Part shown: piece after piece, positions 1 through 45,002 of the stretch | Layout: each line of letters starts with the position of its first letter | Position numbering within the stretch: the first letter of the stretch is position 1 | NCBI RefSeq assembly: GCF_003057965.1 | Contig: NZ_CP020921.1 | Span: forward strand, 918,916-982,915 | Length of the DNA: 64,000 bases | Source of the DNA: Thermodesulfobium acidiphilum | GTDB taxonomy: Bacteria > Thermodesulfobiota > Thermodesulfobiia > Thermodesulfobiales > Thermodesulfobiaceae | Direction of reading: 5' to 3' | Made by a program: the position numbers and the translations under genes | Notes under the pieces: model-generated | What the model saw: only the letters and a program-made list of their open reading frames with translations | Told to the model about the DNA's origin: nothing | Databases searched by the model: none

Positions 1-1038
1 ATAGAAAGAGGTCTCACCTGGAACATTTAGCCTTTTTTTGGATGCACCAGTTGCTAAAAGAATAGCTTTAGACTTATAAAAATCATCAGATGTAATAACC
101 TCAAAATAATCTTCTACTTTATTAATTTTCTTTACTTCCTCTCCAATATTAATACTTACATAATTAAGTACATGCTGAGTTAGAATATCAACTAAGGATT
201 TCCCTGAAATACTGATGAAGCCTGGATAGTTCTCAACCTGAGGAGTAGTAAGTACCTGACCTCCTACCATCTCACTTTCAAAAATACCCACTGAAAGTCC
301 TGATCTCCTTGCGTATATTGCAGCAGAGAGGCCTGCAGGACCAGCTCCTACTATTGTTAAGTCAAATTCTTTTAATTTTTCTTTTTCGTTATGAAGAAGT
401 TCCTGAATGCCTTTTCCAATCAAAGATAACACAAATTCTTCATTTGATTGAAGGCCAATTGCTACCTGTTCATTATCTACATAAGTAACTGGTACAGATC
501 TAATAGCCTTTTTCTGGGCGATTTCCTTATTTTCGAATATTTCTATTATTCTTGTCTTGATATTTCTATTAATCAAACTTGCGTTTATGGCCATTATAGC
601 TTGTTGAGGGCAATATGGGCAGGTAGGACTCACGTAAACTTCCACGACTGTTTCTTTTTTTATATCACTAATTAACGAAGCATCTTTTTCATTTAAAAAT
701 TGTTTTGTACCAGAAATTATCAAAATAGCGTTCACCAATGTGTGAGCTTCTTCTCCAATAGGAGTTCCTACGAATATTGCATCTAACTTTTCATCATCAA
801 ATATAATTATAGGACACTTTATTTCTTCATCTATAAGATTTGAAGGTACATCGCTTTTTGATATAAATTTAACTGAAATTTTCTCTGAAACCTCTGGCAA
901 AACTTCAAATATTTCTTTAGTATATTCGTAAAATTGATCTTTTACCTCTGGCAAAAAAACCTTTATATTTACACTTTCCTTCAATATCAAGAAGCTCTCT
1001 TTTAAAGAATTTTTTATCTTTTCGTCAATAATTCCCAT
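1..1038 (-). CDS. Thioredoxin-fold/thioredoxin reductase fusion (AhpF-like architecture), truncated by window edge
   Basis: Not in ORF track; translated by hand from ATG at 1038 (SD AGGAG): MGIIDEKIK...VSPTCPYCPQ...DLTIVGAGPAGLSAAIYARRSG...GGQVLTTPQVENYPG. CPYC thioredoxin domain followed by TrxB FAD-binding motifs. Confidence 0.9.
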   Translation of the reverse strand, partial: MGIIDEKIKNSLKESFLILKESVNIKVFLPEVKDQFYEYTKEIFEVLPEVSEKISVKFISKSDVPSNLIDEEIKCPIIIFDDEKLDAIFVGTPIGEEAHTLVNAILIISGTKQFLNEKDASLISDIKKETVVEVYVSPTCPYCPQQAIMAINASLINRNIKTRIIEIFENKEIAQKKAIRSVPVTYVDNEQVAIGLQSNEEFVLSLIGKGIQELLHNEKEKLKEFDLTIVGAGPAGLSAAIYARRSGLSVGIFESEMVGGQVLTTPQVENYPGFISISGKSLVDILTQHVLNYVSINIGEEVKKINKVEDYFEVITSDDFYKSKAILLATGASKKRLNVPGETSFY

Positions 1039-1299: not shown

Positions 1300-2361
1300 T
1301 CAAAAGATGCACTGAGGATCTTCATCTAAATATCTATCCTCTTTCCTTGTCGATAGAGCGAAACATACTGCCCTGCAGCCCCTACATTTCATAAATTCAG
1401 AACATTCCTTGCATTTTCCGAAATAATTTTCTTGATCCCTGAGCTTATTTAATACCTCAGAATTAGCCCATATCTCTCTAAATGAATCTCTTCTTAGATT
1501 ACCAAGAGGGATCTTTAGCCTCCTGCAAGGAACAAGGGTTGCATCGCTTAAAATAGTTATCCCTGCAAATCCTGCTGCGCACCCGCCAAAACCATAAGAC
1601 GTATTGCAATCGATGTACAAGGAAGCAATAGGATCGCCTGTATTTACTTTAAAATCAGAAATCAAGTTATTTTCCTTAACAAAATTATAAATAGATCTTA
1701 ACTCTTCTTTGCTTAATATTAAATCCTTGCTATCTTGCGAGTGTCCAGTGGGTACCAGCCTTGAGAAGACCAGTCCACTAACTTGCAGACTTTTGGCAAC
1801 TTGAAATAGATCCTGAAAAGATTCATAGTTAATTTTAGAAATTGTAGTGTTCAAAGTTACGTCAATTTCATTTTCTCTAAGGTTATTTATGCCGATAACG
1901 GCTTTTTTAAATGAATCTTGACCCCTAATATAGTCATGAATTTTTTCAGGACCATCCAAACTGACCTGTACCCCAGATACGTGAAAATCTTTAAGCTTTC
2001 TTGCGACATCTTTGTCTATCAGAGTAGCATTGGTAAGTATATAGTACTCTATATGCTTTTTAGAAAAAAAATCTAAAATCTCTTCCCAATCTCTTCTTAC
2101 AAAAACCTCTCCCCCTAATAAATTTATATTGGGCAGAAAAGCGATTTGAGACTTCTCTGCCCAATCATGAACTACTTCTAATATTTCTTCTGTGATGCCT
2201 TCAATTTCTTTCAGACTCATCTCATTGGATATTTCATTTTCTTGATAACAGTGCCTACAGTTCAAATTGCACCTTTCAGTGATGTGTATTTGAACTGTAA
2301 ATGGAACGGTCATATTAGCTGCCAAACTGACAGCTACACGATCTCCTATCAGCTCTTTCAC
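1300..2361 (-). CDS. Radical SAM/SPASM-domain protein (paralog 2); real start may be ATG at 2313
   Basis: CNLNCRHC motif; SPASM cysteines CAAG...VPCRR...CKECSEFMKCRGC...DPQC. ATG 2313 (MTVPFTVQIH) matches the N-terminus of paralog 1 (MLKFDFFIQAH). Confidence 0.92.
   Translation of the reverse strand: MKELIGDRVAVSLAANMTVPFTVQIHITERCNLNCRHCYQENEISNEMSLKEIEGITEEILEVVHDWAEKSQIAFLPNINLLGGEVFVRRDWEEILDFFSKKHIEYYILTNATLIDKDVARKLKDFHVSGVQVSLDGPEKIHDYIRGQDSFKKAVIGINNLRENEIDVTLNTTISKINYESFQDLFQVAKSLQVSGLVFSRLVPTGHSQDSKDLILSKEELRSIYNFVKENNLISDFKVNTGDPIASLYIDCNTSYGFGGCAAGFAGITILSDATLVPCRRLKIPLGNLRRDSFREIWANSEVLNKLRDQENYFGKCKECSEFMKCRGCRAVCFALSTRKEDRYLDEDPQCIF
2316..2336 (-). promoter_or_regulatory. Candidate bacterial SECIS-like hairpin
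   Basis: mRNA strand UAGCUGUCA-GUU-UGGCAGCUA: 9 bp with one G-U pair (a mismatch on the other strand), loop begins with G, 30 and 21 nt after two in-frame UGAs. Confidence 0.45.
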
Positions 2362-2462
2362 TTTCGGCAGACTTTTCCAGAACCTTTCTTAAGATTATCC
2401 TTAATCTTATTCCAGAAGTCTGTCTCTTTTTCAAGAGTCTTCTTATCAAACTCTTTCTTCAT
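2346..2462 (-). CDS. Putative RiPP precursor peptide: 34 aa if the first UGA is stop (ends 2358), 38 aa ending CRK-U-KS-U if both UGAs are Sec
   Basis: Strong SD AAGGAGGTGA before ATG 2462; MKKEFDKKTLEKETDFWNKIKDNLKKGSGKVCRK then TGA AAG AGC TGA TAG; lies between two SPASM radical SAM genes. Confidence 0.8.
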
Positions 2463-2502
2463 TTTTATCACCTCCTTTGTTATCCATTATTTTATCAAAG
2501 AC

Positions 2503-3522
2503 TCAGCGAAAAAAGCACTGAGGGTCTTTGTCCAGCCAGCCCTGTTTATCTTTTGACAAAGAATACGCTATCGCCCTGCAACCCCTGCATATATTCCAAT
2601 ACAGGCAGCTGTTGCAGCCATTTTTATAGCTGTCCCTTTCCCTAAGAGATAGCAATACTTCATTATCAGACCAGATTTCTCTTAGATCGTCTTTCAGTAT
2701 ATTTCCTAAAGAAATAGGCATCCTTCTACAGGGTACTATCTCACCATCAGACAGAACTGTTATGCTTGAGAATCCAGCCGAACAGCCGCCTACAGTATCT
2801 ATCTTATCTTCGAACTCGTCATCCAGCACGCAAACTCCAAGGGGATCTTCTATCAACAATTCAAATGATGTTGTATTTTTTGCTTTCAATGCTAAATAGA
2901 ATTCTTTCAGCTCTGAATTTGAAAGCATGTCGTCGCGCAGCTTTGAGCCACTGCCAATGGGGACCAATCTTGAAAATCCTAGGCCATTCACTTTCCACTC
3001 ATTTGAGATATTTATCAAATCATCTAAATCTTTATAATTTAGTTTTGATATGGTAGTTTTCAAAACTACTTTAAAGTTCTCTTCCTTCAGAAATTTTACT
3101 GCTTCTTTAACTTTCGAAAAAGTGCCATTTCCTCTAATACTATCATGGGTATCCTTACATCCTTCCAAGCTTATCTGAAATCCATCAAATCTAAATTTTT
3201 TTAAATTAGGAATCATCTCTTTATCAATGAGAGTGCCATTTGTAAGAACATATGGCTCAATATCAATTTCGTTTAAAAATTTTACAATTTCAAAAAAATC
3301 TTCTCTTAAAAATGGCTCGCCACCTGTTAGCTTTATTAGAAGGGGGATCTCGATATCATATTTAGTCTCCCATTCTTTGATTAAATCTTTACTGTATGTG
3401 AAGAATTTTTTCCAATCGTCGAACTTTAGTTCACTTATTTGATTCTCTTGATAGCAGTGCTTACACCTAAGATTGCACCTCTCTGTAAGATGAGCCTGAA
3501 TAAAAAAGTCAAACTTTAACAT
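2503..3522 (-). CDS. Radical SAM/SPASM-domain protein (paralog 1)
   Basis: CNLRCKHC; GGEPF; SPASM CSAG...VPCRR...CNSCLYWNICRGC...DPQC. Confidence 0.93.
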   Translation of the reverse strand: MLKFDFFIQAHLTERCNLRCKHCYQENQISELKFDDWKKFFTYSKDLIKEWETKYDIEIPLLIKLTGGEPFLREDFFEIVKFLNEIDIEPYVLTNGTLIDKEMIPNLKKFRFDGFQISLEGCKDTHDSIRGNGTFSKVKEAVKFLKEENFKVVLKTTISKLNYKDLDDLINISNEWKVNGLGFSRLVPIGSGSKLRDDMLSNSELKEFYLALKAKNTTSFELLIEDPLGVCVLDDEFEDKIDTVGGCSAGFSSITVLSDGEIVPCRRMPISLGNILKDDLREIWSDNEVLLSLRERDSYKNGCNSCLYWNICRGCRAIAYSLSKDKQGWLDKDPQCFFR

Positions 3523-3524
3523 AC

Positions 3525-4367
3525 TTAATCCATTAGAGATTTTATGTCAGGAAAATTTTGCATTGAAACAAGGGTTTTATCCTTTATTACAGGAATATTT
3601 TTCTCAAAAGTTAGTCTTGAGTTAGAATAAAATACTCCTAAAGGTATTTTTTCGCCAAATTCTTGAGATTTTTCAAATGCTTTTAATTTGTCAGAAAGAT
3701 CATAGTCAGCATTGAATTCATAAACTCTATTCCTATACCATTCAAAATTATTGACCTTATTAAAGCTTACACATATTTGAAGTATATCAACCAGTGCAAA
3801 ACCTTCGTGATTTATAGCCATTTTCATGATATTTTTAAGGTGTTCGGGACTTCCAGAAAAACTTCTTGCCACAAATGAACAATCCATTGTAATAGCAAAA
3901 GCTATAGGGTTTAAAGGTTCAGAAAGAGAACCGAAAGGTTGAGCTTTTGTACGTCTACCAAATTCTGTAGTAGGAGAAGCCTGCCCCTTTGTTAGCCCAT
4001 AAACAGCATTGTTATGAACAAAAAGCGTTATATTTGGGTTTCTTCTAAATGCGTGCAAGAGATGATTTCCACCCTCGCCGTAAGTATCACCATCTCCACC
4101 AAAAATTATTACCTTTTGTTTGTGATTGGCCACGCTAATCCCAGTAGCCACTGGCAGAGATCTTCCGTGCAGACCGTTGAAGCCATTGCATTTTAGATAG
4201 TGCGGCAATTTGCTTGATTGACCTATTCCTGAAACTAATGTAATTTCATGCGGTTCAATTCCTAACTCAAATAATGCCTTCTTAAAAGAATCTAAAATAG
4301 CAAAGTTACCGCAACCAGGACACCAAGCTGGAACTGTATCGTTATCAAAACCTTTATAAGATCGCAT
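3525..4367 (-). CDS. korB: 2-oxoacid:ferredoxin oxidoreductase beta subunit
   Basis: WCPGCG, SGIGQS, LHGR and GGDGD...NN TPP motif; start moved to ATG 4367 behind GGAGG. Confidence 0.92.
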   Translation of the reverse strand: MRSYKGFDNDTVPAWCPGCGNFAILDSFKKALFELGIEPHEITLVSGIGQSSKLPHYLKCNGFNGLHGRSLPVATGISVANHKQKVIIFGGDGDTYGEGGNHLLHAFRRNPNITLFVHNNAVYGLTKGQASPTTEFGRRTKAQPFGSLSEPLNPIAFAITMDCSFVARSFSGSPEHLKNIMKMAINHEGFALVDILQICVSFNKVNNFEWYRNRVYEFNADYDLSDKLKAFEKSQEFGEKIPLGVFYSNSRLTFEKNIPVIKDKTLVSMQNFPDIKSLMD

Positions 4368-6066
4368 AAATATCCTCCAAAACCTCCTCGTAATTAAAAG
4401 GTCTACCATCGTACTTTCTAATGTAGTGTGAAAATTTAAAACCATATTCTGACTCAACTAGTTTTTGAAACTGTCCAGATGCGTTATTTTCAATACAAAT
4501 AGATAAATTAGACTTTGATATTATATTTAGAAATTCATAAGAATTTTCCCTTATTGGAAGCGGAAACACCTCACTAAAGTGTATAGCACACACTGATATT
4601 TTCTTGTTATTTACAATTTCTCTAAGGATTCCAAGATTTGACCCAAATCCAACTAAAACAATTTTCGAGTCTTTGTTACCATAAAATTTTGGAGGAGATA
4701 TATATTTTCTAATATTTTCAATTTTCCAAAAATATCTTCTCTCAAGCATTTTTTTTCTTATTTCTCCATCTTCAGTTATATGACCTACTTCATCGTGCTC
4801 ATCACTATCTGTAAATACCAACTGTTTACTATCTCCTGGAACAGCTAAAGGAGTAAGAGGATTGCTCTTATTAAAGTCTAAAAATTTATGTCTTTTATAA
4901 TCTTGATAATTTTCAAAATCTGTCGATCTTAGTCTATAATCTCTGTTTTTTAACTCTATTTTAAGATCTTTTTTATAAGAATATAGGGAATCTACAAGAT
5001 GTTGATCTGTTAAAATAATAGCTGGAATCTGATATTTTTCTGCTAGATCAAAAGCTTTGTTTGTAAGATGTATACATTCAAAAGGATCTCCAGGAGCAAA
5101 GACAATTCTCGGAAACTCTCCATGCCCAGCATGAATAGCATAAAGTAATTCACCTTGCTCGGTCCTGGTAGGAAAACCCGTTGCTGGGCCTGGGCGTTGA
5201 GATAACAAAATTACTATCGGAGTTTCTGTCATCCCAGAAAGAGATAATGCTTCATTCATAAGCGCAAAGCCTCCTCCAGAAGTTCCAGTCATAGCTCTAA
5301 CTCCTGCAAATGATGCTCCAATTGCCATATTAATAGCACTTATTTCATCTTCTGCTTGCTCTACTACAATGTTAAATTTTTTAGCATGTTCCCCAATATA
5401 TTGAAATACTCCAGTAGAAGGTGTCATGGGATATGCAGAATAAAATTTACAACCTGAACCTATAGCACCTATACCTATCCCCCTTATACCACTCAACAAA
5501 ATTTTTTCCTCACTATTTGAAGCTGGCAAATTTATTTTTTTCTTCATATCAAAATCGTATCCAATATCAACTGCTTTCATATTTTGTTCTATTATCTCAT
5601 CAGGCTTATTAACAAAGATGTCGTGGATAACTTTATAAACGTATTTTTTATCAATTGAAAAAATATTTGCTATCAAAGCAAAAGAAACAATGTTTTCATA
5701 TATATTTTTTAAGCCTGCATTTTTTAATAATTCTCTAAAAGGACAGTTTATAAACCTTTCGTCGTATTCGTTTTGTTTAAGAGAATTAGCATCATAAATA
5801 ACAATACCATTATTTCGAAGTAAGTTCTTATATTCTAAACCCTTCTTATCAAAAGTAAGAACTAAATCTAAAAATTTCTTAGGGGCAAAAATCTCATCTG
5901 TGCCAAAAGTTATCTGATAAAAGTTGTGACCCCCTCTTATCCTTGACTCATAATCCTGAAAGGAGAAGACGTTATAGCCCAAAGAGCTAAACAGTCTTGA
6001 AAATCCCTCTCCTGTAGTTTGAATGCCTTGACCTGCTTCGCCACATATTCTTATAGTGTAATTCAC
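4354..6066 (-). CDS. korA: 2-oxoacid:ferredoxin oxidoreductase alpha subunit (gamma-alpha fusion)
   Basis: GEAGQG, SRIRGGHN, YPMTP, QAEDEI, TSGGG, RPGPATG motifs. Confidence 0.93.
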   Translation of the reverse strand: MNYTIRICGEAGQGIQTTGEGFSRLFSSLGYNVFSFQDYESRIRGGHNFYQITFGTDEIFAPKKFLDLVLTFDKKGLEYKNLLRNNGIVIYDANSLKQNEYDERFINCPFRELLKNAGLKNIYENIVSFALIANIFSIDKKYVYKVIHDIFVNKPDEIIEQNMKAVDIGYDFDMKKKINLPASNSEEKILLSGIRGIGIGAIGSGCKFYSAYPMTPSTGVFQYIGEHAKKFNIVVEQAEDEISAINMAIGASFAGVRAMTGTSGGGFALMNEALSLSGMTETPIVILLSQRPGPATGFPTRTEQGELLYAIHAGHGEFPRIVFAPGDPFECIHLTNKAFDLAEKYQIPAIILTDQHLVDSLYSYKKDLKIELKNRDYRLRSTDFENYQDYKRHKFLDFNKSNPLTPLAVPGDSKQLVFTDSDEHDEVGHITEDGEIRKKMLERRYFWKIENIRKYISPPKFYGNKDSKIVLVGFGSNLGILREIVNNKKISVCAIHFSEVFPLPIRENSYEFLNIISKSNLSICIENNASGQFQKLVESEYGFKFSHYIRKYDGRPFNYEEVLEDIYAIL

Positions 6067-6180: not shown

Positions 6181-7071
6181 TTAACTGAAGAGTTTTTTTT
6201 GTATACTTTTTAAATCAAGTGATTCAAGGAATCTTTTTAGGGATTCTCTTTGTTCATCCGATAGATTTTCCCAGGGTTTTTCTTGAATTTCAATTTCTAA
6301 AGAAACATCACTGTCAAGTAGTGTTATTGATTTATAAAAAATGATTTTTTCCCTGTTTTCGTAAATTAGTTTCTTATATCTTTCATTTTTAAGCCTATCA
6401 ATATTCTTTAATAAATCTTCTACTGTATTAAACTCTCTTAATATCTCAATAGCAGTTTTCTTCCCTATTCCTTTTACACCAGGTATTTCATCAGAAGAAT
6501 CACCACATAACGCCTTCATGTCAACTATTTGAATTGGTTTAATTCCAAACTTTGTTAGAAATTTGTCCAAATCATATTTCTCAACATCGCTAATACCTTT
6601 TTTCATAATTAATACTTTTACCCTTTCACTCACAAGTTGCAATAAATCAAAGTCCCCGGTAAGAATTAGAACATCATAATCCTTTTTTAAAATTTGTTTA
6701 GCCATACTGGCAACTAAATCATCGCTCTCATAACCAGGAATTTCATAAAATCGAATATTCATTAGCTTCAAAAATTCTTTTATTAACAGAACCTGAGAAA
6801 TCAGAGATTCTGGCATCTTTGGTCTTGATGCCTTATATTCCTTAAAGCTCTCATGTCTAAAGGTCTTTTCAGGAGAATCAAAGGCTACAAAAATTGTATA
6901 AGGATCTTCTTCTTTTATTAATTTTAATAGTATATTGATAAATCCATAAAGAGCATTTGTCGGTATTCCTGTTTGAGAGGTAAGTTCAGGAAGAGCATAA
7001 TAAGCTCTATAAATAACAGAATGTGCATCAATTAAACAAATTGTTCTTTCTAAATCAAAAAGATTTTTCAT
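6181..7071 (-). CDS. Stand-alone 5'-3' exonuclease (PolA N-terminal/FEN-like domain)
   Basis: LIDAHSVIYRAYYA, FRHESFKEYKASR, ESDD, GDSSDEIPGVKGIGKKTA; ends at 296 aa with no polymerase domain. Confidence 0.9.
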   Translation of the reverse strand: MKNLFDLERTICLIDAHSVIYRAYYALPELTSQTGIPTNALYGFINILLKLIKEEDPYTIFVAFDSPEKTFRHESFKEYKASRPKMPESLISQVLLIKEFLKLMNIRFYEIPGYESDDLVASMAKQILKKDYDVLILTGDFDLLQLVSERVKVLIMKKGISDVEKYDLDKFLTKFGIKPIQIVDMKALCGDSSDEIPGVKGIGKKTAIEILREFNTVEDLLKNIDRLKNERYKKLIYENREKIIFYKSITLLDSDVSLEIEIQEKPWENLSDEQRESLKRFLESLDLKSIQKKLFS

Positions 7072-43047: not shown

Positions 43048-45002
43048 AACAAAAGCACCACTAATGTAATAAATATATATGCAAGATAAAAATGCACATA
43101 TCCGCTTTGAAGAAATCTCATTTTAATAGAAAAATTTAATATAAATTTTCTTATTGGGCTATATAAATAAGTAGTGAATGGAGGCTTTAAATCCTCAGAA
43201 AATAAGATATCCAATGGCTTAGAAGGATTAACTGTGATCTTTCTATTTGGTCTCAGGAAAAAAGAATACGTTCGTCTTATCGGTTGTGAAAAAGACGCTG
43301 CAGTATATTCCATTTTAGAGTTTAAGTTAATGCCGCATCCCCATGTGGGGACCTTTCTAATCTCAAATAGTCCAAAAATTTTACCAAAAATTATAGATAA
43401 ACTAAAGAATATTCCAAAAATTATAAAAAATAAAAGATTTGTCGTTTGAAAATAGACAACATTAAAATTTGAATCTATTTGTAACACTATTTTAGAGATA
43501 TAAAAAAGTATATTGGAAGCTAATAAACCAAGTAATATACAGCTAAAGGCAAGGATAGCTTCTGGTAGGATAATCATAAGATTTGGTTCCTTTGCATTCT
43601 TTGCCTCAGATGAGCGCGGCAAAGCCAAAAATGATACCGAAAAAGCCTTTACAAAACAAGCAGCAGCAAGTGCACCAGTTAAAATTAATGCTACAGGAGA
43701 CAATATAGCAAAAAGCTTCCAGTAAGAATGCGCAAAGTAAGACAGGTTTAACATCGAAATATATATTTGATATTCGCTAGCAAACCCATTAAGGGGAGGG
43801 ATAGCTGAAATAGCCAATGATCCAATCAAAAAAGATAAAGCAGTTTTAGGCATATTTTTTATCAATCCACCATAATGCTCCATATCTCTTGTGCCGATTA
43901 TTTTACTAATAGAGCCTGCAGAAAGGAAAAGCAAGCTCTTAAAAACAGCATGGTTCAAAACATGAAACAAAGAAGCGCAGTAGGCAATAGCAGCAAAAGT
44001 GTATAGAGACATTGATGAGAAAATAACACCTAAACCTACTCCCATAAAAATTATTCCAATATTCTCAACGCTATGATATGCTAAAAGTTTTTTAATATCG
44101 TGTTCCATTAAAGCATAAAGAACGCCGATCAAAGACGATGCTATCCCAATGAAGAGTATAATACTCCCCCACCAGATGGGGCCAACACCCAGCATATCGA
44201 TTACAAATCTAAAAATTCCATATATAGCAGTCTTGATCATAACAGAACTCATCATCGCAGATACATTGCTCGGTGCAGAAGGATGTGCCATTGGAAGCCA
44301 GATATGCAAAGGAACAATACCAGCTTTTGTTCCAAAGCCAATTAGGAAGCATAAGAAGATGATGGATTTAGAAAACATGCTCATATGCATAGCAGCAATC
44401 TTCATAGCATCAAAGTTTAATCCATTTGAAAATGTTCCCCAATACAAGAGCCCAGAGATAATAAAAACAGTTCCAAAATGAGTCATAAATATATAAAAAA
44501 ATCCAGCTTTTCTAACATGCTGATGCCTGTATTCAAAGGTTACAAGAAAATAAGAAAAAATGCTCATTAATTCCCAAAAAATCAAAAATGTAATTGAGTT
44601 AGAAACCAAAAACAAAACTGACATCGAACAAATAAATAAATTATAAAAAAAAGAAAATTTAGCGATATTGTCATTTAGATAGGACTTCATGTATTCCAAA
44701 GAATAAATCATAATCAAAAAATTAATTGTAGAAAGAATTAAAAGAAAAAAGGCAGAAAGCTTATCGAAGTAAAATTGCAGCTCTATATTTGGAGCAATAA
44801 CTAAAAGATTAAACAAAATTGGATTTGGCAATAAAAATATAAAAACACCTGACATAAAACCAAGAACTGAAGCAGTTAAACCAAAATATGAACCGATTTT
44901 CAAAGATAGCGTTTTATTTTTTGAAAAAGCAAGTGGCACAATTGCACCTAAAATATAAAAACCAACTGAAAGATAGAATAAGATAAAACCTAAATCAATC
45001 AT
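43035..45002 (-). CDS. hyfB: HyfB/NuoL-like antiporter-type membrane subunit
   Basis: WELM, WLPMAHPSAP, KLLAYHSVENIG, PPLNGFASE, TWGCG, YTAASFSQP. Confidence 0.9.
   Translation of the reverse strand: MIDLGFILFYLSVGFYILGAIVPLAFSKNKTLSLKIGSYFGLTASVLGFMSGVFIFLLPNPILFNLLVIAPNIELQFYFDKLSAFFLLILSTINFLIMIYSLEYMKSYLNDNIAKFSFFYNLFICSMSVLFLVSNSITFLIFWELMSIFSYFLVTFEYRHQHVRKAGFFYIFMTHFGTVFIISGLLYWGTFSNGLNFDAMKIAAMHMSMFSKSIIFLCFLIGFGTKAGIVPLHIWLPMAHPSAPSNVSAMMSSVMIKTAIYGIFRFVIDMLGVGPIWWGSIILFIGIASSLIGVLYALMEHDIKKLLAYHSVENIGIIFMGVGLGVIFSSMSLYTFAAIAYCASLFHVLNHAVFKSLLFLSAGSISKIIGTRDMEHYGGLIKNMPKTALSFLIGSLAISAIPPLNGFASEYQIYISMLNLSYFAHSYWKLFAILSPVALILTGALAAACFVKAFSVSFLALPRSSEAKNAKEPNLMIILPEAILAFSCILLGLLASNILFYISKIVLQIDSNFNVVYFQTTNLLFFIIFGIFFSLSIIFGKIFGLFEIRKVPTWGCGINLNSKMEYTAASFSQPIRRTYSFFLRPNRKITVNPSKPLDILFSEDLKPPFTTYLYSPIRKFILNFSIKMRFLQSGYVHFYLAYIFITLVVLLLWYR

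Follow-up and report, generated by a model that had tools for sequence, protein, structure and literature searches.

A candidate selenopeptide precursor with two in-frame UGA codons between paralogous radical SAM/SPASM genes of Thermodesulfobium acidiphilum

Results

Two radical SAM/SPASM genes flank a small ORF with in-frame UGA codons

The window analyzed in this work is a stretch of 64,000 nucleotides from Thermodesulfobium acidiphilum. An earlier sequence-only reading of this DNA had described two radical SAM/SPASM genes (hereafter rSAM-1 and rSAM-2) on either side of a small ORF with a strong Shine-Dalgarno sequence and in-frame UGA codons, and this arrangement holds at the coordinates listed in Table 1. 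The ATG of rSAM-1 is located 2 nt past the stop codon of a gene encoding a 2-oxoacid:ferredoxin oxidoreductase beta subunit. Starting from its ATG, the small ORF reads MKKEFDKKTLEKETDFWNKIKDNLKKGSGKVCRK and is followed by TGA, AAG, AGC, TGA and TAG. If both TGA codons are read as selenocysteine (Sec, U), the peptide consists of a leader with the motif K-E-T-D-F-W and a core C-R-K-U-K-S-U. Our promoter and terminator scan of the locus gave no signal above the shuffled background. As previously reported from the sequence, no RRE, protease or exporter is encoded at the locus.

Table 1. Coordinates of the genes and putative elements of the locus in the window
Feature	Position	Strand	Basis or remark
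rSAM/SPASM-1, maturase paralog 1	3522..2503	-	339 aa, from ORF list
Terminator-like hairpin and T-run	2502..2522	-	end of rSAM-1, before peptide Shine-Dalgarno; consensus scan only
Shine-Dalgarno AAGGAGGTGA of peptide gene	2477..2468	-	read from sequence; very strong
Putative precursor gene	2462..2346	-	38-residue peptide MKKEF...GKVCRKUKSU plus TAG stop
First UGA, residue 35, read as Sec	2360-2358	-	family codon behaviour
Second UGA, residue 38, read as Sec, C-terminal in the window's lineage	2351-2349	-	family codon behaviour
TAG stop of peptide gene	2348-2346	-	read from sequence; adjoins second UGA
Putative SECIS hairpin TAGCTGTCA-GTT-TGGCAGCTA	2336..2316	-	9-bp stem, loop GUU
rSAM/SPASM-2, maturase paralog 2	start GTG 2361, TTG 2325 or ATG 2313; end 1300	-	

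Both enzymes match the Pfam models Radical_SAM (PF04055; 86.0 bits for rSAM-1 and 79.9 bits for rSAM-2) and SPASM (PF13186; 42.3 and 41.0 bits) above the gathering scores, and they are 43-44% identical to each other. In our rSAM alignment, C15, C19, C22 and 7 more cysteines are invariant in 32/32 rows, and both paralogs fall inside a clade of peptide-linked rSAMs (SH-like support 99). rSAM-1 stays under every NCBIfam cut-off. Since the two paralogs resemble AhbC/AhbD-type haem enzymes, we considered this identity and rejected it in view of the scores (AhbD, TIGR04545: 163.6 and 173.0 bits against a cut-off of 500) and the peptide linkage. The scores against the ACGX rSAM (TIGR04340; 168.1 and 153.4 bits, cut-off 400) and NirJ2 (TIGR04055; 147.2 and 152.3 bits, cut-off 500) are also below the curated cut-offs.

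The sequence-only reading let rSAM-2 match its paralog from ATG 2313. The conserved part of the enzyme does begin there, but this codon is AAG in another member of the genus (G001), so that it is not a universal start and TTG 2325 or GTG 2361 may be the true one. Between GTG 2361 and ATG 2313, each of 5 comparisons gave 0 synonymous versus 1-6 nonsynonymous changes in the rSAM-2 frame.

The peptide-enzyme pair is conserved across several phyla

Related loci were taken from the best 80 of 548 confirmed relatives. We examined 84 loci for a peptide directly upstream of the rSAM gene, using the regular expression C-x-x-[U/C]-x-x-[U/C/*] with TGA read as U. The RiPP model of the sequence-only reading hinged on a small ORF conserved beside homologous enzymes, and such an ORF, encoding a C-x-x-U-x-x-U peptide, is present in 76 of these 84 loci. 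They belong to Nitrospirota, Thermodesulfobacteriota, Chloroflexota and the window's own isolated lineage. Syntrophorhabdus aromaticivorans UI (L041) is one host of the family that has been cultured. One further peptide was missed by the regular expression and found by eye (L056), three loci have no peptide within 420 nt upstream of the rSAM gene (L040, L066 and L104), and one carries a stop codon inside the peptide core (L070). The core follows the pattern C-x-x-U-K-x-U-K-x, the KEAxFW leader motif and the Cys are kept at the amino-acid level across phyla, and a Shine-Dalgarno sequence as strong as that of the window precedes most family members.

The window's lineage is set apart by its two diverged maturase paralogs and by a peptide that would terminate at the second Sec. 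The two maturases proposed from the sequence are thus found in this lineage, whereas elsewhere in the family there is one. The ORF, both TGA codons and the hairpin are retained in 6/6 sequences of the lineage, and comparison of the peptide ORF with that of the window gave synonymous to nonsynonymous ratios of 13:2, 4:0, 4:2, 3:0 and 1:0. On these substitution counts, the peptide ORF is under purifying selection, and the arrangement is no mere coincidence. A protein search with the 41-aa read-through (U as C) showed that the called 34-aa ORF is contained in three protein clusters, all from the same lineage, and shared 5-mers revealed no Cys homologs of the read-through. A metagenome scan with rSAM-2 gave only 2 close relatives, and a search in the order of G005 (one genome) gave nothing new. 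Only 4/81 loci have a TrxR-like gene within 3 kb, which places this gene outside the family core. YceI-like genes were seen near 17/81 loci.

The UGA positions do not behave as stop codons

We then compared the codons at the two positions, designated U1 and U2, in the 76 distinct family sequences. U1 is TGA in 75 and TGC in 1 (L109), and never TAA or TAG; U2 is TGA in 75 and TAA in 1 (L099). The final stops of the same sequences vary (TAA 32, TGA 25, TAG 19). Within the family, the UGA positions therefore show no stop-like behaviour. The TGC of L109 is the sole Cys swap inside the family proper; together with an all-Cys relative (L025, see Discussion), it provides the UGA/Cys interchange expected from the sequence-only reading.

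The codons around the UGAs point in the same direction. The Lys codon between them is AAG in 63 cases and AAA in 8, and the Ser in this interval uses both codon families (AGC 24, AGT 9, TCC 5, TCG 1). Outside the window's lineage, U2 continues in frame with a Lys (AAG 48, AAA 23) and a small residue. This synonymous variation of Lys and Ser codons argues for conservation at the amino-acid level past both UGAs. In the window's own lineage, the sole change between the UGAs is AAG to AAA (L131 and L132), which is silent for the peptide and replaces E with K in the rSAM-2 frame.

The genome of the window encodes the complete Sec machinery on which the sequence-only reading depended: selA (464.5 bits), selB (364.7 bits) adjoining a tRNA-Sec (77.5 bits), and selD, which has one in-frame TGA of its own. 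SelA was detected in 46/50 tested host genomes carrying the locus, a proportion to be read against phyla rich in Sec users and with no matched background. Taken together, the Sec reading of the small ORF is well supported by these comparisons, and they suggest that Sec is inserted at both sites in this organism.

A covarying SECIS-type hairpin follows the UGA codons

Bacterial SECIS elements are stem-loops that closely follow the UGA on its 3' side and carry G/U in the apical loop; in the bSECISearch model, the distance is 16-37 nt. The window hairpin lies just 3' of the UGA, with a G/U apical loop 30 nt and 21 nt past the two UGAs. One of its 9 bp is a U.G pair, so that full pairing is obtained on the minus strand only, in agreement with the mRNA-strand pairing claimed earlier. 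Within the genus, one stem pair has changed from C-G to U-A, a compensatory exchange, and another from G.U to A-U.

In the family, a hairpin of 5-9 bp with a GUU, GUC or GGUC loop is found in 75/75 distinct downstream sequences. Measured from the U of UGA1, its stem starts at 20-31 nt, with the exception of the decayed L084 (14 nt); measured from the U of UGA2, it starts at 11-22 nt. The hairpin also covaries across homologous loci, as had been proposed for checking: in alignment A6, 84% of the cells are paired and 8/9 pairs change on both sides (74 cells), while 0/500 shuffles were as good and slid controls were 14-48% paired. A second alignment (A3) gave similar figures. A single hairpin must serve two UGAs 9 nt apart, and its spacing is best for UGA2.

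The build of the family hairpins is that of the FdhA SECIS in the same genomes. FdhA genes with an in-frame TGA (G041, G042 and G043) carry hairpins like GTTGCCG-GTC-TGGCAGC at 13-17 nt after the U, compared with 11-22 nt for the stem at UGA2; UGA1 sits 9 nt further away. In the window genome, an FdhA-like gene has the hairpin ...GACC-AGTTTA-GGTC, which shares the loop motif AGUUU with the peptide hairpin, and selD has a 7-bp hairpin with the loop AGGUG. A covariance model built from the peptide hairpins only (R1) gives, by construction, 26.5 bits on the window hairpin. Its best non-self match in 110 kb is the FdhA SECIS of G041 (15.5 bits, E 0.29); the model is too sequence-specific and reaches, weakly, only 1 of the 6 FdhA-type SECIS elements that the searched loci contain. 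Other R1 matches, at window 6691-6719 and 44813-44837 and at L127 3365-3389, seem fortuitous. An Rfam search of 8 loci at E <= 1 returned no SECIS family, only two chance-level matches.

The UAG directly after UGA2 means that, in the 6 close sequences of the window's lineage, UGA2 could itself be the terminator. Sec would then be inserted at the first UGA only, and UGA2 and UAG would end a 37-residue product ...C-R-K-U-K-S. TGA and TAG are indeed adjacent in 6/6 lineage sequences, and these have no K-x tail of the kind that elsewhere proves that U2 is read through. However, the other family members do decode U2, with K and a small residue in frame, and the position of the hairpin suits UGA2 best: its loop begins 23 nt after the U, within the range of the same genome (21 nt for the FdhA-like gene to 29 nt for selD). 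TGA has also been kept although the TAG backup would make TAA neutral, an argument of little power with 6 close sequences. We therefore regard termination at UGA2 as improbable.

Still less credible is the simpler alternative of the sequence-only reading, a 34-residue Cys-only precursor ending at the first UGA, with a GTGA overlap coupling rSAM-2 and the hairpin as ordinary mRNA structure: gene callers annotated this ORF, 4/4 genus genomes retain GTG 2361, which overlaps the first TGA, and ATG 2313 is lost in G001, but the codon behaviour at and past the first UGA, the covarying SECIS-type hairpin and the absence of synonymous changes between GTG 2361 and ATG 2313 in the rSAM-2 frame all disfavour it.

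The leader is predicted to bind conserved residues of rSAM-2

We modelled the complex of rSAM-2 with the 34-aa peptide, without the Sec residues. The predicted complex has an ipSAE of 0.80, against 0.00 for the best control; at least 69% of contacts are shared between runs, with a partner pLDDT of at least 67. The ipSAE mark is reached by 58/80 solved complexes and 2/110 mismatched pairs, a calibration that is only rough here because our own alignments were used as input. In the model, leader residues 5-25 contact W51, 54-57, 279-284, 289 and R292 of rSAM-2, and W51, R279, W282 and R292 are invariant in 32/32 alignment rows, rSAM-1 included. Together with the conserved gene linkage, this structure model suggests that the peptide is modified as a RiPP.

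These contacts also bear on whether the ORF is chiefly a selenium-sensing leader, in which UGA termination or Sec insertion, with SelB on the hairpin, would set the translation of rSAM-2 and the peptide would be no substrate. Among the 72 rows with a recognisable start motif, 26, including the window's lineage, offer candidate rSAM starts only within the peptide ORF or at its end, and in those rows the SECIS falls among the first rSAM codons. In the other 46, however, a separate rSAM ATG lies 49-359 nt after UGA1 and the peptide is equally conserved. The conservation of KEAxFW and Cys across phyla and the predicted docking of the leader on invariant enzyme residues speak against a purely regulatory role, which seems very unlikely to us, and regulation could coexist with a substrate role.

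Discussion

In our view, the small ORF is quite probably the precursor of a selenium-containing RiPP-like peptide, with both UGAs decoded as Sec by means of the hairpin at 2336-2316. SelB and Sec-tRNA(Sec), recruited by this hairpin, would decode the two UGAs, and translation from the very strong Shine-Dalgarno sequence would yield a 38-residue peptide with the C-R-K-U-K-S-U end. Its leader would dock straight on the SPASM part of the flanking enzymes, with no RRE/PqqD helper, and the enzymes would subsequently modify the Cys/Sec triad. As with other SPASM maturases, the modification would most likely be either a thio/selenoether cross-link or an oxidative heterocycle. As no protease or exporter accompanies the pair, the product is probably intracellular. 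In the window's lineage, the maturase gene would have been duplicated, the copies now flanking the precursor. Because the candidate starts of rSAM-2 lie within or beside the SECIS, its translation is probably coupled to that of the peptide ORF.

A more speculative proposal, toward which we remain doubtful, is that anaerobes use the product inside the cell as a selenium-based cofactor, for redox chemistry or metal binding, following the logic of mycofactocin and PQQ, and do not export it as an antibiotic. A helper-free SPASM enzyme would make it from a highly translated double-Sec peptide. In compact loci such as that of the window, the overlap of SECIS and maturase start could let the selenium supply tune the enzyme to precursor ratio, and in the window's lineage the two diverged maturases could introduce two different modifications on a Cys/Sec/Sec triad ending in a C-terminal Sec.

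Most likely, then, this tiny gene reads two UGAs as Sec and belongs to a widespread family absent from the curated libraries and inventories examined. Nothing like the window peptide appears among the 119 selenoprotein families of Table 1 of PMC13188914 (2026). In the literature covered on selenopeptides, radical SAM/SPASM enzymes and SECIS, we found no description of the family; Table S2 of BSepDB (PMC13326102) could list further families. SbtA/SbtM is the only radical-SAM-modified selenopeptide system in the texts covered. If our reading is correct, the family would be the second such system, and a much more widespread one. It would also be a selenoprotein family overlooked by present inventories and annotation pipelines, the latter because the peptide is truncated to a 34-residue ORF. 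It would supply SPASM enzymes with Sec substrates of natural origin; synthetic Sec peptides are reported to have served as probes of the auxiliary-cluster chemistry of these enzymes (PMC10177961). It would further be a clear example from nature of one SECIS, past the stop codon, that serves two UGAs separated by 9 nt. The window contributes a variant with two maturases and a putative C-terminal Sec, which makes it a good system to ask which enzyme does what.

Comparison with known systems

Most members of the window family end in U-K-S-stop, with Sec two residues before the stop as in the "UXX-star" selenoproteins of PMC13188914; with this ending, the SECIS lies beyond the stop codon. The same source also gives predicted examples of the UxxU spacing of two Sec residues (Prx-like, NF041115 and the FmdB family). 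The UXX-star and UxxU selenoproteins differ in being domain proteins with models of their own, none of which matched the window family, and no such entry in Table 1 of PMC13188914 is described as a radical-SAM-linked peptide.

The SPASM maturases of SCIFF/ranthipeptides and sactipeptides share the fold family and the cluster motifs. The closest solved chains by sequence are SkfB (6efn, E 5e-16), SuiB (5v1q, E 4e-10) and CteB (5wgg, E 3e-8). These carry an N-terminal RRE-type extension: the matches begin at residue 101-129 of the solved chains, compared with 8-11 in the window enzymes. The SCIFF layout is a minimal peptide-plus-enzyme cassette with no conserved exporter, like that of the window family. 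To our knowledge, the substrates of SCIFF/ranthipeptide and sactipeptide SPASM enzymes contain no Sec.

Another relative is the PqqD-dependent C-x-x-C-x-x-C cassette of L025. Its rSAM/SPASM enzyme is 36-38% identical to rSAM-1, and its peptide tail VCRQCSGCHGCR aligns with VCRKUKSU of the window. In contrast to the window family, all positions are Cys, a separate PqqD-like gene stands between enzyme and peptide, and the rSAM is placed outside the Sec-peptide-linked clade.

The closest known system is SbtA/SbtM (peptide TIGR04081, maturase TIGR04082), though its defining features are not found here. In both systems, a small ribosomal peptide whose Sec is encoded by UGA, with a SECIS downstream, stands beside a radical SAM/SPASM enzyme. 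SbtA, whose family TIGR04081 appears as "Selenobacteriocin" in the covered part of PMC13188914, has at least 2 Sec residues according to that of PMC9204691, a multiplicity shared by the window peptide. However, these two sources place the Sec of SbtA in a conserved GGUG/SGUG motif, as opposed to C-x-x-U-K-x-U in the window family. The sequence-only reading rightly held the peptide to be unlike SbtA: it lacks the GGUG motif, and neither its 34-aa nor its 38-aa form (U as C) matched any NCBIfam family, TIGR04081 included, at E <= 0.01. Four family peptides gave nothing relevant in NCBIfam at E <= 10. Against TIGR04082 (516 positions, cut-off 350 bits), rSAM-1 and rSAM-2 score 158.9 and 114.4 bits over positions 199-516 only, which indicates that the N-terminal third of the model is absent from the window enzymes. 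Finally, SbtA/SbtM is described in the covered part of PMC9204691 as confined to Geobacter and Desulfobacteria, whereas the window family extends over Nitrospirota, Thermodesulfobacteriota and Chloroflexota in addition to its own isolated lineage.

Organization of the cassette in the window and its lineage

Re-reading of the sequence together with the ORF list showed that the sequence-only reading had described the features of the cassette accurately to the base (see the table). Both flanking enzymes, the radical SAM/SPASM paralogs rSAM-1 and rSAM-2, score above cut-off for Pfam Radical_SAM and SPASM and share 43-44% identity.

Features of the selenopeptide cassette in the window
Feature	Position	Strand	Source
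rSAM-1, radical SAM/SPASM gene, 339 aa	3522..2503	-	sequence and ORF list
Perfect SD AAGGAGGTGA of the peptide ORF	2477-2468	-	sequence
Small ORF encoding MKKEFDKKTLEKETDFWNKIKDNLKKGSGKVCRK	ATG 2462	-	sequence
Continuation of the ORF: TGA, AAG, AGC, TGA, TAG	TGA 2360-2358, TGA 2351-2349, TAG 2348-2346	-	sequence
Hairpin TAGCTGTCA-GTT-TGGCAGCTA	2336-2316	-	sequence
rSAM-2, radical SAM/SPASM gene	frame open from GTG 2361, end 1300	-	sequence and ORF list

The same arrangement is present in three other genomes of the genus, and two metagenome contigs represent two further relatives. Beyond the genus, the relative search returned only "same domain" matches, so the lineage is isolated. All lineage relatives keep the gene order oxidoreductase-beta, rSAM-1, peptide, rSAM-2. 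The peculiarity of this lineage is a single precursor flanked by two diverged, putative maturases, with a 2-oxoacid:ferredoxin oxidoreductase operon joined to the cassette on its upstream side. Downstream follows a Grx-like/TrxR-like reductase gene, an arrangement restricted to this lineage. This reductase gene follows rSAM-2 on L131 and L132, the two contigs reaching far enough, while a gene of this type occurs within 3 kb in only 4/81 family loci. In the window, it lies at 1-1038 (minus strand), continues beyond the end, and encodes a fusion of a glutaredoxin-like (CPYC) domain with a pyridine-nucleotide disulfide reductase.

At 3525-6066 (minus strand) lie two 2-oxoacid:ferredoxin oxidoreductase-like subunit genes, named from their translations alone. 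Only 2 nt separate the end of the downstream ("beta") ORF from the rSAM-1 ATG, so the cassette probably shares its transcript with a low-potential enzyme that reduces ferredoxin. A terminator-like hairpin (CTCAG...CTGAG followed by a T-run; 2502-2522, minus strand) overlaps the rSAM-1 stop codon directly before the peptide SD and could uncouple or attenuate transcription between rSAM-1 and the precursor. A third rSAM/SPASM paralog, 33% identical to rSAM-1, is encoded in the same genome outside the window (G000:C1:1162040-1162999); its surroundings showed no small ORF rich in Cys/Sec.

The peptide belongs to a widespread family

An alignment of rSAM-1, rSAM-2 and distant hits was scanned against one genome per species, which gave 548 confirmed relatives. 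The best 80 of these 548 are 37-45% identical to rSAM-1 and come from Nitrospirota/Thermodesulfovibrionales, Syntrophales, Syntrophorhabdus, Desulfobulbaceae and Dehalococcoidia. With TGA read as U, a regular expression detected a C-x-x-U-x-x-U peptide directly upstream of the rSAM gene, on the same strand, in 76/84 loci examined; the small ORF is therefore conserved beside homologous enzymes. Among the eight misses, L056 does contain the peptide, L042 and L105 are without upstream DNA, L070 looks decayed, with a stop inside the core (PYCK*RGUKS, upstream of 503), and L025 is an all-Cys relative. No peptide was seen upstream of the rSAM gene in L040, L066 and L104.

A typical member is MKKALGKKALDKEATFWNDIKKAIAANTVKVCHKUKSUKT, from Syntrophorhabdus aromaticivorans UI (L041). 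The conserved parts of the leader are a K-E-A-x-F-W motif and the Cys, and most members share the strong SD found in the window. Locus L025 (1468-2916) combines an rSAM/SPASM gene with a PqqD-like helper and encodes a peptide of 46 aa whose C-terminus reads VCRQCSGCHGCR; this distant relative of the cassette has Cys wherever the window peptide has Cys or Sec. On one contig (L059), two precursor copies are found (916-943 and 2720-2747), and the cassette looks locally duplicated since a short rSAM fragment follows the first copy.

According to ORF clustering, the rSAM gene alone is common to all loci, and a second adjacent copy is confined to the lineage of the window. The next commonest neighbour, a YceI-like (PF04264) gene, lies next to the rSAM gene in 17/81 loci (among L038-L116). 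Across the family loci, the cassette has no conserved companion gene for a protease, an exporter or a PqqD-like protein.

The two in-frame UGAs do not behave as stops

Codons were counted on 76 distinct family sequences. At the first in-frame UGA (UGA1), 75 have TGA and one has TGC (L109); at the second (UGA2), 75 have TGA and one has TAA (L099). TAA or TAG never occurs at the first position, and the UGA/Cys interchange sought in the family is seen in L109 and in the all-Cys L025. The TAA of L099 (around 2954-2975) and the core stop of L070 may be due to decay of these copies or to assembly errors. As true terminator, TAA occurs 32 times, TGA 25 times and TAG 19 times. The Lys codon between the UGAs is AAG (63) or AAA (8), and Ser is encoded by both codon families (AGC 24, AGT 9, TCC 5, TCG 1); after UGA2 follow Lys (AAG 48, AAA 23), a small residue and the stop. 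This codon variation indicates conservation at the amino-acid level past both UGAs. By these comparisons, neither UGA behaves as a stop in the family.

Within the lineage, the peptide ORF is under purifying selection, with synonymous to non-synonymous changes relative to the window of 13:2, 4:0, 4:2, 3:0 and 1:0 in five comparisons. TGA-AAR-AGC-TGA-TAG is kept in 6/6 lineage sequences, and the one substitution within it, AAG to AAA, is silent for the peptide and replaces E with K in the rSAM-2 frame. The K-x tail after UGA2 is lost here, which would make Sec the last residue of the peptide. With six close sequences to judge from, it may also be that UGA2 is the actual stop in this lineage, leaving no C-terminal Sec.

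The downstream hairpin has the properties of a SECIS

The Sec reading of both UGAs agrees with the selenium machinery of the organism. The genome (single contig, 1.77 Mb) contains selA, selB directly adjoining the tRNA-Sec gene, and selD with one in-frame TGA of its own, so that all components searched for were found; a formate-dehydrogenase-like (FdhA-like) gene also carries an in-frame TGA. This gene content indicates that the organism is able to make selenoproteins. SelA was detected in 46/50 host genomes tested, with 28 further genomes outside this sample; the figure is a raw count, uncorrected for genome completeness or for the background frequency of SelA.

A hairpin of 5-9 bp with a GUU, GUC, GGUC or GGUCA loop is present in 75/75 distinct downstream sequences. 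The distance from the U of UGA1 to the stem is 20-31 nt (11-22 nt from UGA2), except in the decayed L084 (14 nt from UGA1). In the loop-centred alignment A6, pairing at the six core pairs fails in 2 cells only. Over all pairs, 84% of cells are paired in A6, and slid controls fall to 14-48%. Both sides change in 8/9 pairs (74 cells), a level reached by 0/500 shuffles, and the covariation proposed as a check is thus found in the family. The MAFFT alignment A3 gave similar figures. Inside the lineage, changes in the hairpin are compensatory (C-G to U-A in G001, G.U to A-U in G002).

Three host genomes contain FdhA genes interrupted by an in-frame TGA, and at 13-17 nt past the U these genes have similarly built hairpins, for instance GTTGCCG-GTC-TGGCAGC (L041 genome) and GGCCA-GTT-TGGCC (L051 genome). 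In the window's genome, the FdhA-like gene and the peptide hairpin have the loop motif AGUUU in common, and selD has a 7-bp stem with the loop AGGUG. By manual count, the distance from the U to the loop start is 21 nt in the FdhA-like gene and 29 nt in selD; for the peptide it is 23 nt from UGA2 or 32 nt from UGA1. Bacterial SECIS elements generally follow a distance rule of 16-37 nt, and the peptide hairpins presumably resemble those of E. coli fdhF and Moorella. When a covariance model built from peptide hairpins only was run over 110 kb, its top match apart from the hairpins themselves was the FdhA SECIS in the genome of L041, though weakly (15.5 bits, E 0.29); the model missed the other FdhA elements in the searched DNA. 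No Rfam family matched the hairpin.

Start of rSAM-2 and translational coupling

The sequence-only reading had matched rSAM-2 to its paralog from ATG 2313, leaving the preceding stretch free to be non-coding. The latter holds: over the 16 codons from GTG 2361 to ATG 2313, each of five comparisons finds no synonymous but 1-6 non-synonymous changes in the rSAM-2 frame, and the stretch is therefore not constrained coding sequence. However, this ATG is AAG in G001 and cannot be the start everywhere. Conserved alternatives are TTG 2325, inside the hairpin, and GTG 2361, overlapping UGA1. Of the 72 rows with a recognisable rSAM start motif, 26, among them those of the window's lineage, have no candidate start other than inside the peptide ORF or at its end, which suggests that the rSAM is translationally coupled to it. 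In those 26 rows the SECIS occupies the first codons of the rSAM ORF; the arrangement would permit enzyme level to respond to selenium.

Predicted leader binding by the enzymes

Neither paralog reached an NCBIfam cut-off, the best scores against cut-offs being 168/400 (ACGX-system), 173/500 (AhbD) and 159/350 (SbtM, C-terminal two thirds). In a FastTree phylogeny of 81 sequences with two outgroups, from which four cluster members missed by the trimming motif and one short sequence were left out, both fall inside a clade of peptide-linked rSAMs (SH-like support 99), each on a long branch whose order relative to the other 75 is not settled by the tree. Both enzymes start right at the radical-SAM core, and the closest solved chains, SkfB, SuiB and CteB, match only from their residue 101-129 onward; rSAM-1 and rSAM-2 thus lack the N-terminal peptide-recognition domain that these have.

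We modelled rSAM-2 (32-row alignment) with the 34-aa ORF (58-row alignment). The pair reached an ipSAE of 0.80 in three runs compared with 0.00 for the best of three controls, on a calibration (58/80 solved complexes, 2/110 mismatched pairs) that is only rough here because custom alignments were used. At least 69% of contacts recur between runs, and the partner pLDDT is at least 67. Leader residues 5-25 (including E13, F16 and W17) contact W51, 54-57, 279-284, 289 and R292; W51, R279, W282 and R292 are invariant in all alignment rows, rSAM-1 included. The model supports docking of the leader on the SPASM region of both paralogs.

Proposed mechanism and comparison with known selenopeptides

Our in silico analysis establishes a conserved, highly translatable ORF with non-stop UGAs, a SECIS-type hairpin, Sec machinery and obligate SPASM linkage. 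The observation is genuine, and sequence comparison lends strong support to reading the UGAs as selenocysteine. One SECIS past the stop codon would direct SelB-dependent Sec insertion at both UGAs, a position expected for Sec within three residues of the C-terminus. The leader would then be recognised by the enzyme without a helper, followed by radical-SAM modification of the Cys/Sec triad. Natural candidates for this modification are a thio/selenoether link and an oxidative heterocycle like that made by SbtM. The product would remain inside the cell, as no exporter or protease travels with the peptide-enzyme pair.

No NCBIfam model (June 2026) matched the family peptides. In Table 1 of a May 2026 review (PMC13188914), which covers 119 families, the sole radical-SAM-linked peptide is "Selenobacteriocin" (TIGR04081), with an SGUG motif. 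We found no description of a C-x-x-U-x-x-U peptide in the literature searched, and an earlier one is possible in Haft & Tolstoy 2025 or in supplements. PMC9204691 places the Sec of SbtA in a GGUG motif and describes SbtA as confined to Geobacter and Desulfobacteria. The sequence-only reading, which saw no resemblance to SbtA, was right in this: the window system is distinct from SbtA/SbtM (TIGR04081/TIGR04082) by every defining feature tested. The peptide and its enzymes are best filed as a distinct form of radical-SAM-matured selenopeptide, a kind already known.
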